This document shows, one piece after another, positions 23,501-29,818 of a stretch of 64,000 nt of DNA; position 1 is the stretch's first letter; each line of letters begins with the position of its first letter. Source of the DNA: Escherichia phage dhabil. The position numbers were made by a program, and so were the translations under genes. The stretch lies in the sequence record MN850621.1; one strand, written 5' to 3'. Under the pieces are notes generated by a model. It saw nothing but the letters and a program-made list of their open reading frames with translations. It was not told the DNA's origin and did no database searches.

Positions 23501-24160
23501 ATGGCTGATTTAAAATTAGGCTCAACCGCTGGAGGTTCCGTTATATGGCACCAAGGTAACTTTCCGCTGACGCCGGTATCAAATGATATTTTATATAAAA
23601 CCTACAAAATCTATACCGAATTTAATAAGCCCCAAGCCGCAGATAACGACTTTGTTTCTAAAGCCAACGGTGGGAATTATTTGGGTACTGTAAACTTTGA
23701 TAAAGACCTACAATTTAAAGATTCGGATGGTTATTGGGTTAAATTAGGTAGAAAAACCAATACTACTCCAATGTCGACTACGTATTCTTTCTCATTTAGA
23801 ATGAGTAAAGGTATGGGACTTGAAACAGCAGATGGGACGCCATTTGTAATCTTTGACCCTAGCACTACAGTAGGAGCTAACCGTCTTACCGTAATGGGCG
23901 ATATTCTTGGCCGTCAGATTAAAGATGAATCCGGTCGAGTATTTTCACCTGGTAACACCCCTACTAAAGCCCAGGTTGGATTAAGTGATGTAGATAACGC
24001 AAAACAGGTCCAAATAAATAATAGTAACATACAATCTATGGCTGGTGTTCTTTCAGCCCCGAATTTCATATCTAGGAATCCAGGTACATTGAACGAACAT
24101 GTTCCTCGTATTGACCAGGTTGTTCTTAGAGGTACGTCTGAAGATTTTGGATATTATTAA
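23501..24160 (+). CDS. 36: Long tail fiber distal connector gp36
   Basis: 219 aa; N-terminus MADLKLGSTAGGSVIWHQGNFPL closely matches T4 gp36. Confidence 0.85.
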   Translation: MADLKLGSTAGGSVIWHQGNFPLTPVSNDILYKTYKIYTEFNKPQAADNDFVSKANGGNYLGTVNFDKDLQFKDSDGYWVKLGRKTNTTPMSTTYSFSFRMSKGMGLETADGTPFVIFDPSTTVGANRLTVMGDILGRQIKDESGRVFSPGNTPTKAQVGLSDVDNAKQVQINNSNIQSMAGVLSAPNFISRNPGTLNEHVPRIDQVVLRGTSEDFGYY

Positions 24161-24168
24161 GAGGCATT

Positions 24169-27100
24169 ATGGCTACTTTAAAATCGATACAATTTAAAAG
24201 AAGTAAAATAGCAGGAGCCAAGCCTACTGCAGCCCAGTTAGATGAAGGTGAACTGGCTATTAACTTGCGTGACCGCACTATTTTTACTAAGTCAGACCAA
24301 GGACAGATTATTGATTTGGGCTTTGCTAAAGGTGGACAAGTTGATGGTGATGTTAATATTAACGGGACTTTGAATTTAAATGGTGAACTTGTCCAAACAG
24401 GTACGGCAGGTATGAGAACTGAAGGTAGTATTACTGCCCCTGTTTTCCGAGCTAGTAAGGGCTCATTTTATTCTAGAGCGTCTAATGATACTTCTAACGC
24501 ACATTATTGGTTTGAAAACGCAAATGGCACTGAACGTGGTGTTTTATATGCTAAACCACAGCTTGAAAATGAAGGCGTAATTACCATGCGTGTTCGCCAA
24601 GGTACTGCTGCCGGCGCGCAAAATTCAGAGTTTCACTTTATTTCTAATGATGGTGGTATTTTTCAGGCTCGTAAATTAGCGGCTTTAACTTCAATATCAA
24701 CACCTACAATTTCCGTTAACTTAGTAAACCATGATTCAAAAACGTTTGGACAGTATGACAGCCAATCTTTAGTTAATTACGTATACCCGGGCACCGGCGA
24801 AACAAATGGTGTAAACTATCTTCGTAAAGTTCGTGCCAAATCTGGCGGCACTATGTGGCATGAGCTTTGTACTGCTCAATTAGGCCAAGCTGATGAAATG
24901 TCTTGGTGGACAGGTAATACTCCTCAGTCTAAACAATACGGTGTTCGTAACGACGGCCGTTTGATTGGTAGAAATAGCCTTGCATTAGGTACTATGACTA
25001 CCGATTTCCCATCTAGCGATTATGGTAATACCGGAGCTATGGGTGACAAATACCTAGTTTTAGGTGATACCGCGACCGGTTTAAAATATATTAAACAAGG
25101 TAATTTTGATTTGGTGGGTGGAGGTTATTCTGTTGCTTCTATTACTACTGATGGTTTCCGCGGTACAAGCAAAACCATATTTGGACGTAGTAATGACCAG
25201 GGGCTTACTTGGCTTCTGCCGGGCCAGAATTCTTCTATGGTTTCTATTAGAACCGAAATAGATGGTAATAACTCCGGGGATGGCCAAACCCATTTGGGTT
25301 ATAATTCTAATGGTAAACTTTATCATTATTTCCGTGGCACAGGTCGTGTAGCCATTTCTATGGCAGAAGGTATGATTATTGAACCTGGTATTTTAAATAT
25401 TAAGACCGGGGTTAACGAATTAAATCTTAGAGCAGACGGCACAGTTTCTACTACACAGCGTTTAATGGTTAATAACGGCCTAGTTCTTAACGCAAACAAT
25501 AATACTTCTGCATTGGCATTAACTGCTCCTACCGGTGTTGATGGTACAAAAACCATTAACTGGGACGCTGGTACCCGAAATGGCCAGAACAAAAATACCG
25601 TTACCATGAAAGCATGGGGTAACTCATTTAACGCCGGTGGCGGTAATAGAGAAACTGTATTCGAAGTATCAGATTCACAAGGATATTATTTCTATGGCCA
25701 ACGTACTAATCCGGCTTCCGGTGAAACTGTAGGCCCTATTAACTTCAAGTTCAACGGCTCTGTTGAAACAGGTCATTTTTCTAGTCTCGGAAATATAAGT
25801 GCATCCGGTACCGGTTCTTTTGGTGGCAATGTTACCATGACTAATGGCCTGTTTGTCCAAGGCGGCGCTTCAATTAGTGGCCAAGTTAAAATGGGTGGTA
25901 CTGCTGACGCATTAAGAATTTGGAACGCTGAATATGGTTTGATTTTCCGTCGTTCAGAAACGGGTTCTTCTGCTTCATTCCATCTTATTCCTACCCTTCA
26001 AAACGCCGGTGAAAATGGTGGAATAAGCGACCTCCGTCCGTTGTCTATTAATTTAGCCAATGGTACCGTTATAATGGGGAATAAATCTACAGGTGGTCCA
26101 CTTTTTACAGTCGACAACGTAAGTAAATTTGTCCAAACTGACTGTAGGTTGCGTGTTAATATGGATTCCGATGGTATTGTTTTGAATGCTTCATCTCAAG
26201 CAGCATCCAACTTTATCCAAGGACGTAAAGCAGACGTTACAAAATGGTATCTTGGTATTGGTGACGGCGGTAACGTTGTTCGTTTACATAACTATACTTA
26301 TTCACATGGTATTGCATTAAACTCTGATACTGTTGATATAACCAAGCCTCTTAAAATAGGTTCTGATATTCGTATTGGTACAGATGGTAACATTACAGGC
26401 AGTTCTACCTTAGACAACTTTAAAAACCTGAATTCAACATTAGACCATAAAGTTAATATGGGCGGATGGTCGGGTGGTGCTACTACAGGTTGGTATAAAT
26501 TTGCTACTGTAGAAATTCCGCAGTCAACAGGCACGGTATCTTTTAAAATATTTGGTGGTTCCGGATTTAATTTTAAAAGTTATGGTCAGGCTTCAATAGC
26601 TGAAATAATCCTTAGAACTGGTAATAATAACCCTAAAGGCCTTAATGCTACGTTGTGGAATAGGACTTCTGAAGCTATTTCCCAGATTGCTTCGGTTAAT
26701 ACAAGCGAAGATATCTATGATATTTACGTTTATTTGGGTGGATATTCTAATTCTTTAGTAGTAGAATATACATGCAGTAGCAATAGTAAAGTAACCGTAG
26801 TAGGTATGGATAGCGGCATCCAGCCTTTGGTAGAAACATTACCTGAAGGTCATATTGTAGGTAAATCTGTAAGAATGCTGAACAATATTGACGGAATGTT
26901 TGCTGCTGGTGAATCAGATATTGTTACTCGTGGTGAATATGTTACCAATAACCAAAAAGGTATGCGTATTAAATCTAAAGGTAATGATTTAGATTCTAAT
27001 GCTGCTTTACTTAGAAACGACGGTGGAAGTTTTTATATTTTAGCTACAGATAAAAATACGACAGAAAAACCCGATGCGGCTAATGGTGATTGGAATGGCT

Positions 27101-28035
27101 TAAGACCTTTCTCTATTAATATGGCTGATGGTCGCGTTGGTATGAACCACGGTCTGAATATTACTGGTGGCGGATTAAACGTTACAGGTGGTAATACAAA
27201 CCTTGGTAATATTACCTCTCGTGTAGTTTCTTCTGCACGTTCACCTGCAGGCTGGGCTGATAACTCAGATGCAATGAAACCTAAAATCACCTTTATGGCA
27301 GACCATGGTGATTTATCCAATTCAGGTAGTTATTATCCTATTGTCGGAGCGTGGAGTAACTATGGTTCAGCAGGTTATCGTCAGACCTTTGAGTTTGGTT
27401 GGGTTGGTTCTGGTACCACAGCTGGATGGCGTGATGGTATTATTCGTATACGTGGCGACAATGCTAATGGCCAACAAGCAAGATGGCGCTTTGTAATGGA
27501 CGGTACTTTAGAGTGTCCAGGTAAAGTACTGCTACCACAAACAAGTGCCTTCGGTATTAACACAATAAACGGGTTTGGTGGTAACTCACTTGTAATTGGG
27601 GATAGCGATACTGGTTTTAGACAAGTTGGTGACGGTCTTTTAGAAGTTTGGACTAATGCTTCTCGCCGTATGCGATTCCAAGGTGGTGACACTTATTCAG
27701 ATATGAATATAAATGCTCCAAACGTTTATATTCGTTCTGATATTCGTTTGAAATCAAACTTCAAACCAATTGAAAACGCTCTTGAAAAGGTTGAACAGCT
27801 TGATGGTTTAATCTATGATAAAGCTGATTATATTGGTGGAGAGGTTGTTCACACTGAAGCAGGTGTTATTGCACAGAAATTGAATGAAGTATTACCTGAA
27901 GCTATTCGTGAAGTTGAAGATATCAAAGGTAATAAAGTTCTGACAGTTTCTACTCAGGCACAAGTTGCTCTATTAATTGAAGCAGTTAAAACTCTGTCGG
28001 CTAAAGTAAAAGAACTTGAAGCTAAGTTAAACTAA
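24169..28035 (+). CDS. 37: Long tail fiber distal subunit gp37, with C-terminal intramolecular-chaperone-like segment
   Basis: 1288 aa; follows gene 36; last 99 aa begin with SDIRLK and are helix-rich. Confidence 0.85.
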   Translation: MATLKSIQFKRSKIAGAKPTAAQLDEGELAINLRDRTIFTKSDQGQIIDLGFAKGGQVDGDVNINGTLNLNGELVQTGTAGMRTEGSITAPVFRASKGSFYSRASNDTSNAHYWFENANGTERGVLYAKPQLENEGVITMRVRQGTAAGAQNSEFHFISNDGGIFQARKLAALTSISTPTISVNLVNHDSKTFGQYDSQSLVNYVYPGTGETNGVNYLRKVRAKSGGTMWHELCTAQLGQADEMSWWTGNTPQSKQYGVRNDGRLIGRNSLALGTMTTDFPSSDYGNTGAMGDKYLVLGDTATGLKYIKQGNFDLVGGGYSVASITTDGFRGTSKTIFGRSNDQGLTWLLPGQNSSMVSIRTEIDGNNSGDGQTHLGYNSNGKLYHYFRGTGRVAISMAEGMIIEPGILNIKTGVNELNLRADGTVSTTQRLMVNNGLVLNANNNTSALALTAPTGVDGTKTINWDAGTRNGQNKNTVTMKAWGNSFNAGGGNRETVFEVSDSQGYYFYGQRTNPASGETVGPINFKFNGSVETGHFSSLGNISASGTGSFGGNVTMTNGLFVQGGASISGQVKMGGTADALRIWNAEYGLIFRRSETGSSASFHLIPTLQNAGENGGISDLRPLSINLANGTVIMGNKSTGGPLFTVDNVSKFVQTDCRLRVNMDSDGIVLNASSQAASNFIQGRKADVTKWYLGIGDGGNVVRLHNYTYSHGIALNSDTVDITKPLKIGSDIRIGTDGNITGSSTLDNFKNLNSTLDHKVNMGGWSGGATTGWYKFATVEIPQSTGTVSFKIFGGSGFNFKSYGQASIAEIILRTGNNNPKGLNATLWNRTSEAISQIASVNTSEDIYDIYVYLGGYSNSLVVEYTCSSNSKVTVVGMDSGIQPLVETLPEGHIVGKSVRMLNNIDGMFAAGESDIVTRGEYVTNNQKGMRIKSKGNDLDSNAALLRNDGGSFYILATDKNTTEKPDAANGDWNGLRPFSINMADGRVGMNHGLNITGGGLNVTGGNTNLGNITSRVVSSARSPAGWADNSDAMKPKITFMADHGDLSNSGSYYPIVGAWSNYGSAGYRQTFEFGWVGSGTTAGWRDGIIRIRGDNANGQQARWRFVMDGTLECPGKVLLPQTSAFGINTINGFGGNSLVIGDSDTGFRQVGDGLLEVWTNASRRMRFQGGDTYSDMNINAPNVYIRSDIRLKSNFKPIENALEKVEQLDGLIYDKADYIGGEVVHTEAGVIAQKLNEVLPEAIREVEDIKGNKVLTVSTQAQVALLIEAVKTLSAKVKELEAKLN

Positions 28036-28037
28036 TA

Positions 28038-28055
28038 AGAGGGCTTCGGCCCTCT
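28038..28055 (+). other. UUCG tetraloop hairpin between genes 37 and 38
   Basis: AGAGGGC-TTCG-GCCCTCT; no U tract. Confidence 0.4.
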
Positions 28056-28066
28056 AAGGATTTATA

Positions 28067-28855
28067 ATGGCGATTGTAGGATTACCTGGTTGGATTGGAC
28101 AATCTGCGGTTGACGAAACAGGTCAACGTTGGATGGATGCTGCAATGCGAGATGTTCGTGTTGCAGTTCCAGGCTGGATGGGTTCGATGGCTAACCAATC
28201 AAAAGAAATTTACTTATCTATAGGGGCTAACCATAACTATGATAGAAATAGTCTAATCAACTGGATGAGAGCTCAAGGTGGCGCGCCCGTAGTTATTACT
28301 ATAACAGGCGATTTAGTATCCAATAGTACAGGTAATGCTTGTTTAGAATTTCCTAGCGACCTTCCTAATGCATATATTCAACTTACTATTAATAGTGGTG
28401 TAACTGTTTATGGACGTGGTGGTAATGGTTCAACTAACGGTTCAGCAGGCGGAAATGGTGGTGTTGCGATACGTAACTCAGCAGGAACCAAATTACGCAT
28501 TCGGAACAACGGTACTATTGCTGGCGGTGGTGGCGGTGGTGGCGCAGTATCATTGCAAAATAACTACCCGACTAACGGTTCCTGTGGTGGCGGTGGTGGT
28601 AGACCATTCGGCGTCGGCGGGAAAATAGGGACGGATAGCATATTGTCCGGTTCAAACGCATCCCTAACTGCTGCAGGCACAGGTGGTACCACGGTCCAAT
28701 ACGGCGCGGGTAATGGCGGTAACGTTGGTGCTGGCGGCGGACGAGGATGGGGTTCTAACGTTTATACTTCTGCAGGTGGTTCTGCTGGTGCAGCCGTTAC
28801 AGGTAATGCTCCTTCTTGGCAAAACGTTGGTACTATTCACGGCAGCCGAGTTTAA
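28067..28855 (+). CDS. 38: Tail fiber adhesin gp38 (T2-type, glycine-rich motifs)
   Basis: 262 aa; N-terminus MAIVGLPGWIGQSAVDETGQRWM like T2-type gp38; C-terminal half carries poly-glycine islands. Confidence 0.8.
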   Translation: MAIVGLPGWIGQSAVDETGQRWMDAAMRDVRVAVPGWMGSMANQSKEIYLSIGANHNYDRNSLINWMRAQGGAPVVITITGDLVSNSTGNACLEFPSDLPNAYIQLTINSGVTVYGRGGNGSTNGSAGGNGGVAIRNSAGTKLRIRNNGTIAGGGGGGGAVSLQNNYPTNGSCGGGGGRPFGVGGKIGTDSILSGSNASLTAAGTGGTTVQYGAGNGGNVGAGGGRGWGSNVYTSAGGSAGAAVTGNAPSWQNVGTIHGSRV

Positions 28856-28866
28856 TACTTCTGTAT

Positions 28867-28874
28867 TATAAATA
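28867..28874 (+). promoter_or_regulatory. Late promoter (TATAAATA) for holin gene t
   Basis: Exact TATAAATA 18 nt upstream of the t ATG; GGAG Shine-Dalgarno between. Confidence 0.7.
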
Positions 28875-28892
28875 TCTTTAAAGGAGAAAAGT

Positions 28893-29546
28893 ATGGAACC
28901 AAAAGTAGGATTTTCGATAACAGACCTACTTTTTGGACTTCTTGATAGAATTTTTAAAGATACTTCTTCCGGGAAAGTAGTTTTTTCCCGGGTCCTAGTC
29001 GTAATATTATTGTTCTTTATGGCATTGGTTTGGTATAAAGGCGAGCATATTCTAAACTTTTACAAAGAGACAACTTATGCCTCTTATACTGAAATGATTA
29101 GACAAGACCAGGACAATAGATTTAAAATTGCGGCTATCGAGCAGCTCCGAATAGTGCATTCTTCTTCAGGCGCAGACTTCACAGCAATATATTCTTTTAG
29201 GCCAACCAACATGAATTATTTTGTGGATATGGTAGCTTATGAGGGTAAATTACCGGAAACGGTAGACGCAAAAAATACGGGAGGATTCCCGATTGACAAA
29301 ACGTCAGTAGAGTATATGGCGGGAGTTAACGGGAACTATTTTGAATCATCTACTGAATCTGTGTTTCTCCCTACAAAGGAGAAAACCCATTTCACTTATA
29401 TGTTTTCATGCCCGTTTTTTAATTTGGATAACATCTATGCCGGCTCGATATCATTATATTGGTACGATATCAAACCGGATTTAGGATTTCCTAGACTTTC
29501 GTCTATGTGTGGTCAGGCTGGGAGAACATTAGGTCGAACTCGTTAA
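28893..29546 (+). CDS. t: Holin (T4 gpt-type, lysis-inhibition capable)
   Basis: 217 aa; one N-terminal TM segment and large periplasmic domain; strong similarity to T4 T (ILFG.LDR.FKD...GKV...SRV.VVILLF, NYFVD..AYEGKLP, YMFSCPFFNLDNIYAG). Confidence 0.9.
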   Translation: MEPKVGFSITDLLFGLLDRIFKDTSSGKVVFSRVLVVILLFFMALVWYKGEHILNFYKETTYASYTEMIRQDQDNRFKIAAIEQLRIVHSSSGADFTAIYSFRPTNMNYFVDMVAYEGKLPETVDAKNTGGFPIDKTSVEYMAGVNGNYFESSTESVFLPTKEKTHFTYMFSCPFFNLDNIYAGSISLYWYDIKPDLGFPRLSSMCGQAGRTLGRTR

Positions 29547-29818
29547 AAATTGGAGGTATACATCATTAGATAACGGTGTATATCTTCATACCCTTCATTA
29601 AATTGCTCAATAAGAGTATCACGTTCATCTTCAGTTAAAGACTTAAAGAGTTTATTAAAAGATAGGCCATTAAGTTCCTTTCCATGTTCATTACGAATAC
29701 CCAACTCATTCAAAAAGGCAATAAACTCATCACGACGTTGCATGATGTCTTCACAATCCGTTTTAATCAAAATAGAAACAATAGTAGCAATTTCGGAAAC
29801 GATTTCAATTTTAGTCAT
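29543..29818 (-). CDS. asiA: Anti-sigma70 factor AsiA
   Basis: 91 aa; blocks ANFIAFLNE.G and DTLIEQFNEGYEDIHRYLMMYT match T4 AsiA as I recall it; converges tail-to-tail on t with a 4-nt overlap. Confidence 0.85.
   Translation of the reverse strand: MTKIEIVSEIATIVSILIKTDCEDIMQRRDEFIAFLNELGIRNEHGKELNGLSFNKLFKSLTEDERDTLIEQFNEGYEDIHRYLMMYTSNF

Follow-up and report, generated by a model that had tools for sequence, protein, structure and literature searches.

Does the glycine-rich gene that lies between genes 37 and t in the 64,000-nt stretch of phage DNA analyzed here (the window) encode an adhesin of the T2 type, and do its runs of GGN codons serve as a mutational switch for host range or as a structural scaffold of fixed length? 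The open reading frame, g38, occupies positions 28067..28855 on the + strand (ATG to TAA, 789 nt, 262 aa plus stop), an interval with 100% nucleotide identity to Escherichia phage CLB_P2 (Dhakavirus; OL770107, OZ035781), by whose name we refer to the gene below. The counterpart CDS there, UNI73207.1, is annotated as "tail fiber protein", and the identical protein of phage dhabil as "long tail fiber adhesin". The gene is thus already annotated, ordinary and well characterized, and the evidence strongly favors reading its product as an adhesin.

The gene order around g38, 36-37-38-t, is the canonical one of T-even phages, and CLB_P2 has the same:

23501-24160: gp36.
24169..28035, + strand: g37, the distal long-tail-fiber subunit of 1288 aa, with Pfam matches to gp37_trimer, Gp34_trimer and Peptidase_S74.
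28038..28055, + strand: a hairpin of the C(UUCG)G type, downstream of the stop codon of g37 and ahead of the ribosome-binding site of g38, with a predicted fold of -13.4 kcal/mol.
28893-29546: the holin gene t, downstream of g38.

Within gp37, the Peptidase_S74 domain covers aa 1190-1246, an SDIRLK motif is found at aa 1190, and the C-terminal part matches the gp37 chain of phage S16 (6f45_A). The context expected for a T2-type gp38, that is, an S74-ending gp37 upstream and holin t downstream, is therefore present. A hairpin recurs at this site in 8/8 lineages, although the stems differ; these sequences were folded singly, since indels broke the RNAalifold alignment. An Rfam scan of 27500-29600 returned one sub-threshold chance match inside gene t and nothing else, and a promoter and terminator scan returned nothing above shuffle expectation.

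The first-pass annotation had read the product as a T2-type gp38 adhesin, and the profile searches bear this out, as do the structural matches (6f45_D and 9v85; model TM 0.79-0.93) and the 90.5% identity to T2 gp38 described below. The protein matches Pfam PF05268 (GP38) over the whole profile (1-218/218) at 2.6e-78 and 263 bits (cut-off 25), and Pfam PF21721 (Gp38_N) with aa 1-42 at 4.3e-16 and 59 bits (profile 1-40/40). In addition, PHROG 2056, "tail fiber protein; host specificity", matches at 4.5e-96. The N-terminal string that had been singled out as conserved, MAIVGLPGWIGQSAV, is indeed found at aa 1-15. Glycine accounts for 32% of aa 115-262 (148 residues) versus 10.5% of aa 1-114. Several alternative-frame ORFs within g38 were judged to be by-products of its GGN-rich, stop-poor sequence.

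Sequence matches to solved structures were obtained for S16 gp38 bound to the gp37 tip (PDB 6f45_D; 7e-44, aa 8-260) and for the receptor-binding domain of PP01 gp38 (PDB 9v85; 9e-44). An AlphaFold2 model built with 92 homologues as input (mean pLDDT 90.9, pTM 0.86) predicts an N-terminal helical domain, a central beta-helix and a polyglycine-II (PGII) sandwich, and when compared with the PDB it matched 9v85 and 6f45_D only, at E ~1e-22. In S16, the glycine motifs of gp38 form ten PGII helices arranged as a three-layer sandwich, the distal loops are the proposed receptor-binding site, and the protein docks on the gp37 trimer via three conserved tryptophans (PMC6851490). For the central motif of S16, termed "GRM 3", a figure legend of that paper describes a saturating hydrogen-bond network (PMC6851490). 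Residues in the loops of PP01 gp38 touch OmpC (PMC12892980).

To place the glycine runs within this fold, we used a conservation profile of 126 non-redundant homologues, with column invariance scored across 92 homologues. Five conserved blocks (aa 115-121, 152-159, 174-185, 214-225 and 237-262) are separated by indel-rich variable blocks, a layout equal to the published plan of T2-type gp38, with its five glycine-rich motifs (GRMs), four hypervariable segments (HVSs) and conserved N- and C-termini (Trojet 2011, PMC3157838). The variable segments between glycine motifs noticed in the first-pass annotation correspond to this published layout. The segments of the protein, all on the + strand, are as follows:

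28067..28201, + strand: N-terminal attachment domain, aa 1-45, with the Pfam Gp38_N match at aa 1-42.
28202..28408, + strand: first part of the central beta-helix, aa 46-114; model strands 48-115 have a pLDDT of 96-98, and the segment aligns to the S16/PP01 beta-helix.
28409..28429, + strand: GRM1, YGRGGNG, aa 115-121; G116, R117, G118 and G119 never vary and G121 hardly does (92 homologues).
28430..28456, + strand: HVS1, STNGSAGGN, aa 122-130; variable loop and indel hotspot with 20 sequence types among 126 homologues.
28457..28519, + strand: conserved beta-helix rung, GG.AI.N..G..LRI.N.G.I, aa 131-151; one cluster at 70% identity (126 homologues), with several invariant columns.
28520..28543, + strand: GRM2, one alanine plus seven glycines, aa 152-159; aligns with the eight-glycine run of S16.
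28544..28585, + strand: HVS2, AVSLQNNYPTNGSC, aa 160-173; variable loop with 27 types among 126 homologues.
28586..28621, + strand: GRM3, GGGGGRPFGVGG, aa 174-185; GGRP.G is invariant or nearly so.
28622..28705, + strand: HVS3, aa 186-213; the longest variable loop region, with 29 types, which holds D190.
28706..28741, + strand: GRM4, AGNGGNVGAGGG, aa 214-225; G215, G217, G218, G221 and G224 are conserved.
28742..28774, + strand: HVS4, RGWGSNVYTSA, aa 226-236; variable loop with 28 types among 126 homologues.
28775..28852, + strand: GRM5 and the conserved C-terminal end, aa 237-262; G238, G241, A243, V244, G246, P249, W251, G255, I257 and G259 are conserved.

The glycine strings that had been picked out from the sequence fall within this plan, namely GRGGNGSTNGSAGGNGG at aa 116-132 (nt 28412-28462), AGGGGGGGA at aa 152-160 (nt 28520-28546), GGGGGRPFG at aa 174-182 (nt 28586-28612) and GAGNGGNVGAGGGRGWG at aa 213-229 (nt 28703-28753). 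In the attachment domain, the model places helices at 10-18, 23-29 and 38-41, with a conserved tryptophan before each; these residues, W9, W22 and W37, all align to tryptophans of S16 gp38 and are conserved in the family. GRM1 shows zero amino acid variation within the T2-type group, and the glycine run of GRM3 is five residues long in 102/126 homologues. As to the variable loops, HVS2 is the least confident block of the model (pLDDT 62), and most insertions in other alleles fall in HVS3. In phage T6, each GRM and each HVS is essential, with single deletions giving no viable adhesin or phage (PMC3157838).

We propose that the gp37 trimer sheds its C-terminal S74 chaperone domain by self-cleavage near S1190, after which one gp38 would dock on the exposed gp37 tip through its N-terminal three-helix domain and W9, W22 and W37, both steps being postulated by homology. 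The glycine motifs of gp38 would form left-handed PGII helices, packed into a rigid hydrogen-bonded sandwich that emerges from the central beta-helix, and the HVS loops at the distal end would contact an outer-membrane protein receptor, as suggested by homology to T2, S16 and PP01. In this family, host range would change by point substitutions in the HVSs and by homologous recombination of loop cassettes or of the whole gp37-tip-plus-gp38 module, the glycine-motif DNA being one of several possible crossover places. We consider it very probable that gene 38 encodes a monomeric T2-type gp38 adhesin and that this explanation, including the fixed glycine scaffold, holds. From T2, S16 and PP01 we infer that the CLB_P2 protein is present in the virion, sits at the fiber tip, docks as described and acts in adsorption.

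The receptor of CLB_P2 gp38 is most probably FadL and/or OmpF, the receptors of T2 gp38 (PMC3157838, PMC8594841, PMC12529663). This call is the weakest step of our explanation: ~9 of the 25 differences between CLB_P2 and T2 lie in HVSs, and T2 and SV76, only two residues apart, are reported to rely on different receptor sets (PMC12529663), which renders a FadL/OmpF prediction uncertain. In T2, a point change in HVS3, D190G, characterizes an adsorption-escape mutant (PMC12529663), whose record was included in our gp38 alignment.

The DNA of the glycine motifs, including the seven-glycine tract of GRM2, could be a dedicated recombination hotspot and the preferred crossover point for loop shuffling, in which case the tract would matter chiefly as DNA. 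The GRMs have been proposed as recombination hotspots (Tetart 1998), as the passages citing that work in PMC3157838 and PMC12032242 relate, and two mosaic relatives, whose breakpoints were judged by codon-level sliding-window identity in full-length codon alignments of few sequences, are in keeping with this proposal. DCP80 is of the T2 type up to GRM1, carries a foreign HVS1 cassette at aa 116-133 and is T2-type again at aa 139-158, so that one switch lies between GRM1 and the next conserved rung; it then diverges right after GRM2 and rejoins the T2 type at GRM5. CJ20 resembles VR20 at aa 1-40, T2 at 41-85, fDHCT2 at 86-133 and VR20/T2 at 134-158, departs from every parent from ~aa 178, directly after GRM3, to ~aa 240 in GRM5, and resembles fDHCT2 again thereafter. 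Moreover, GRM2 and GRM3 have short exact repeats in common, such as GGTGGCGGTGGTGG. Among 126 proteins, T2-type HVS1 occurs in 17 and T2-type HVS2 in 25, as opposed to 12 each for HVS3 and HVS4, which indicates that chimeras exist; T2-type HVS1 and HVS2 are indeed found joined to foreign HVS3 and HVS4.

Nevertheless, a dedicated hotspot strikes us as somewhat doubtful. Many breakpoints fall outside the GRMs: CJ20 switches at aa ~40, ~85 and ~133, and CLB_P2 and dhaeg differ by a patch at aa 51-90. In the experiments of Trojet et al., most crossovers mapped to the conserved sequences on either side of the specificity domain (PMC3157838). Within the T2-type group, GRM2 combines zero amino acid diversity with a synonymous divergence of 0.47, the highest of all segments; its DNA is thus conserved no further than glycine codons impose. 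The HVS sets are mostly coinherited, as the 20-29 types per segment occur in 39 combinations, and a four-gamete-style test on the HVS types of the 126 proteins yielded no complete quartet, arguing that cassette shuffling is real but limited and that the sets are mostly linked. The ends of tblastn matches at aa 115, 144-152 and 170 were set aside as breakpoint candidates, because the low-complexity filter of BLAST masks glycine runs. The suggestion of the first-pass annotation that the GGN tract is a likely site of recombination is borne out for the glycine motifs, though it is not new: recombination at or near the GRMs is real, with CJ20 and DCP80 as mosaics, yet the literature had this model before (Tetart 1998; Trojet 2011), breakpoints lie elsewhere too, and the seven-glycine tract, whose DNA is not conserved beyond its glycine codons, holds no privileged DNA-level role.

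The same annotation had also described the DNA here as a homopolymeric GGN tract that might undergo slippage. Seven glycine codons are indeed found at 28523-28543 (codons 153-159), reading GGC GGT GGT GGC GGT GGT GGC; the tract is homopolymeric in the protein only, the DNA alternating GGC and GGT. Tandem Repeats Finder detects a 9-nt unit at 28522-28544 in 2.6 copies with 100% match, and the unit GGCGGTGGT spans 28523-28543 in 2.3 copies. Such a perfect tandem repeat could mark a contingency-type hypermutable site, at which 9-nt slippage adds or removes three glycines and thereby shifts host range. In a polyglycine-II helix, three residues make one turn, so a three-glycine step would remain both in frame and in register. 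Glycine runs in GRM2 do range from 4 to 10 across distant alleles (126 homologues), which means that length is not absolutely fixed family-wide.

We regard a hypermutable tract as very improbable all the same. Nine T2-type genes (80-92% nt identity) show seven distinct GGT/GGC patterns but seven glycine codons in 9/9 cases, and only CLB_P2 shows the perfect 9-nt periodicity, because its relatives have other GGT/GGC orders. Likewise, glycine-run indels are absent among ~50 listed members of five 90%-identity clusters, a sample of viable phages, mostly sequenced once, that rare population variants would escape. Where run lengths do change within a cluster (8 vs 6, 5 vs 4), total protein length stays constant, which points to substitution as the cause; length differences among the listed cluster members are all N-terminal. 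Comparison of neighboring run lengths (T2-type G7 vs G8; G8/G6; G5/G4) revealed G/A/S substitutions at run ends, without indels, and across the family the run lengths change in steps of a single residue. The tract is also the counterpart of a core PGII helix of S16 with a saturated hydrogen-bond network (PMC6851490), deletion of single GRMs leaves no viable T6 (PMC3157838), and the documented adsorption mutants are point changes in HVSs (PMC12529663).

Replication slippage in the GGN tract is hence not supported and, as far as these sequences can tell, appears to be no detectable source of variation. With the seven-glycine run as a core scaffold helix, its length is probably held fixed by purifying selection, and the alignments indicate that the glycine-codon runs of gp38 act as a structural scaffold of strictly constrained length rather than as a mutational switch. 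There is a slim chance that a rare one-unit slip of three glycines, or one helix turn, could push the HVS2 loop out or pull it inward. If true, CLB_P2 would thereby have a rare way of altering its receptor reach that the structure tolerates, and the sampling of natural isolates would be too sparse to reveal it.

What do these results mean for the phage itself? CLB_P2 has been used in mouse-gut and therapy-oriented studies. Its T2-allele adhesin gives a testable prediction of FadL/OmpF as receptor, although the practical value is small; for cocktail design, it makes cross-resistance of CLB_P2 with T2-type phages likely. The findings on gp38 are already known, and the remark on recombination restates the literature. 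The negative outcome for slippage serves as a useful correction; the current understanding of gp38 adhesins stays as it was.

Comparison with known systems begins with T4, whose gp38 resembles the protein studied here in gene name and in place between g37 and t only; it is an unrelated sequence and an assembly chaperone that forms no part of the virion, and in T4 gp37 itself does the receptor binding (PMC6851490). That the present gp38 might be a gp37 assembly chaperone only and likewise absent from the virion, the outcome named in the first-pass annotation as fatal to the adhesin reading, is suggested by its T4-like gene position but can be given next to no credence on grounds of homology, since BLASTP of T4 gp38 against it gave zero alignments at E <= 100, its adhesin-family membership is strong, its structural match is to the fiber-capping gp38 of S16 and PP01, gp37 has its own intramolecular S74 chaperone, and the T4 sequence record itself notes the T2-subfamily gp38 as an unrelated adhesin.

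The adhesin of S16 (6f45), by contrast, has the same three-domain architecture, and our model superposes on it at TM 0.81-0.85. All three tryptophans are kept, and the long glycine run of S16, 151-GGGGGGGG-158, which forms PGII helix 3 (PMC6851490), aligns with the seven-glycine tract of CLB_P2. The two proteins differ in overall sequence (~43% identity), in the length of this run (eight glycines in S16 versus seven) and in the HVS loops, the S16 receptor being Salmonella OmpC. The closest structural match is PP01 gp38 (9v85), with a TM of 0.93 (target-normalized), an rmsd of 1.5 A and 48% identity. It has the beta-helix plus PGII sandwich in common with our model (PMC12892980) and differs in its receptor-recognition loops A-E, with OmpC of E. 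coli O157 as the receptor.

The nearest well-known relative is T2 gp38, which has the same length of 262 aa, aligns without indels at 90.5% amino acid identity and falls into a common 90%-identity protein cluster. The proteins differ by 25 substitutions, ~9 of which lie in HVSs; identities in HVS1-4 are 8/9, 11/14, 25/28 and 9/11 (53/62 in total), D190 is conserved, and CLB_P2 groups with T2 at all four HVSs (70% identity clusters). The GRMs are nearly identical, differing only by V161A just after GRM2 and S239A in the GRM5 block. At the DNA level, however, identity is 80.6%, and ~44% of the codons for identical residues differ, which argues for an old allele lineage under purifying selection rather than a recent transfer.

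The 90%-identity cluster comprises CLB_P2, T2, SV76, VR20 (Gaprivervirus) and the Dhakaviruses dhaeg, IME08, IME341 and AnYang. The Dhakavirus and Gaprivervirus alleles (dhaeg, dhabil, IME08, IME341, AnYang, fDHCT2 and VR20) have 90-96% amino acid identity, 262 aa and the same glycine-run lengths, and differ by scattered substitutions and small mosaic patches, such as aa 51-90 versus dhaeg. An IMG/VR scan for further T2-type alleles found three loci only. The genome of CLB_P2 is that of a Dhakavirus, unlike T2, and its flanking proteins have diverged far more than the adhesin, with identities to T2 of 47% for gp36, 55% for the holin and 62% for gp37 overall, as compared with 80-96% for aa 900-1150 of gp37. 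The adhesin module is thus far more conserved than its flanks, so that the gp37 tip and gp38 together form a conserved unit across three genera.

The receptor-binding region of CLB_P2 and that of dhaeg, a phage of the same genus, are framed by nearly invariant neighbors, gp36 being 99.5% and the holin 100% identical. The distal fiber subunit between them, gp37 (24169-28035, + strand), shares only 54% identity with that of dhaeg and is near-identical only at residues 1-50 and 1151-1288. Its tip (residues 900-1150) is 80-96% identical to T2 gp37. gp37 is thus strongly mosaic, and the fiber shaft has evidently been exchanged independently of gp38. Within g38 itself, codons 51-90 (28217-28336, + strand) show ∼75% nucleotide identity to dhaeg, compared with 93-100% for the remainder of the gene, and at the protein level they match T2 exactly. 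The segment is a short gene-conversion-like patch, located in the beta-helix part and away from the glycine motifs.

The glycine motifs carry a repeat of their own, with hypervariable segment 2 (HVS2) flanked by its two copies in glycine-rich motifs 2 and 3 (GRM2 and GRM3):

28529-28542 and 28586-28599, + strand: exact 14-nt direct repeat GGTGGCGGTGGTGG, copies in GRM2 and GRM3, 57 nt apart

A crossover between the copies would remove 19 codons and keep the frame. None of the homologues showed a deletion of this kind. The gene also contains alternative-frame ORFs of 58-72 aa:

28410-28628, + strand: alternative-frame ORF
28683-28871, + strand: alternative-frame ORF
28664-28840, - strand: alternative-frame ORF

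The most likely explanation is that they arise as by-products of the GGN-rich coding sequence, which is poor in stop codons. Comparable opposite-strand ORFs are labelled hypothetical proteins in the GenBank record of CJ20.

A GC-rich hairpin separates the stop codon of g37 from the AAGGA ribosome-binding site of g38:

28038-28055, + strand: C(UUCG)G-type hairpin AGAGGGC-UUCG-GCCCUCU, predicted fold -13.4 kcal/mol

Hairpins occupy the equivalent position in T2, VR20, IME08, AnYang, JS98, RB5, and T6. Because the same spot is filled with stems of different sequence, the comparison suggests a conserved RNA element, perhaps with a role in mRNA stability or processing, or in translational coupling. 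Another RNA candidate, a c-di-GMP-I riboswitch match within the holin gene (29234-29293, + strand), is almost certainly a chance match, scoring 22 bits (E 0.2) against an Rfam gathering score of 35.

Downstream of g38, the DCP80 record (PQ671644) annotates the following gene (1638-2056 in locus L010 of this phage) as "exonuclease subunit 1", although the start of the DNA immediately 3′ of g38 resembles holin t. With a length of only 141 kb, this record may contain a mis-assembly or a deletion junction. In CLB_P2, holin t (start at 28893) is preceded by a late-promoter-like sequence:

28867-28874, + strand: TATAAATA, 19 nt upstream of holin t

This octamer fits the T4 late-promoter consensus and is kept in relatives from both Dhakavirus and Gaprivervirus, and a promoter is annotated at the corresponding position in the Lutter record.
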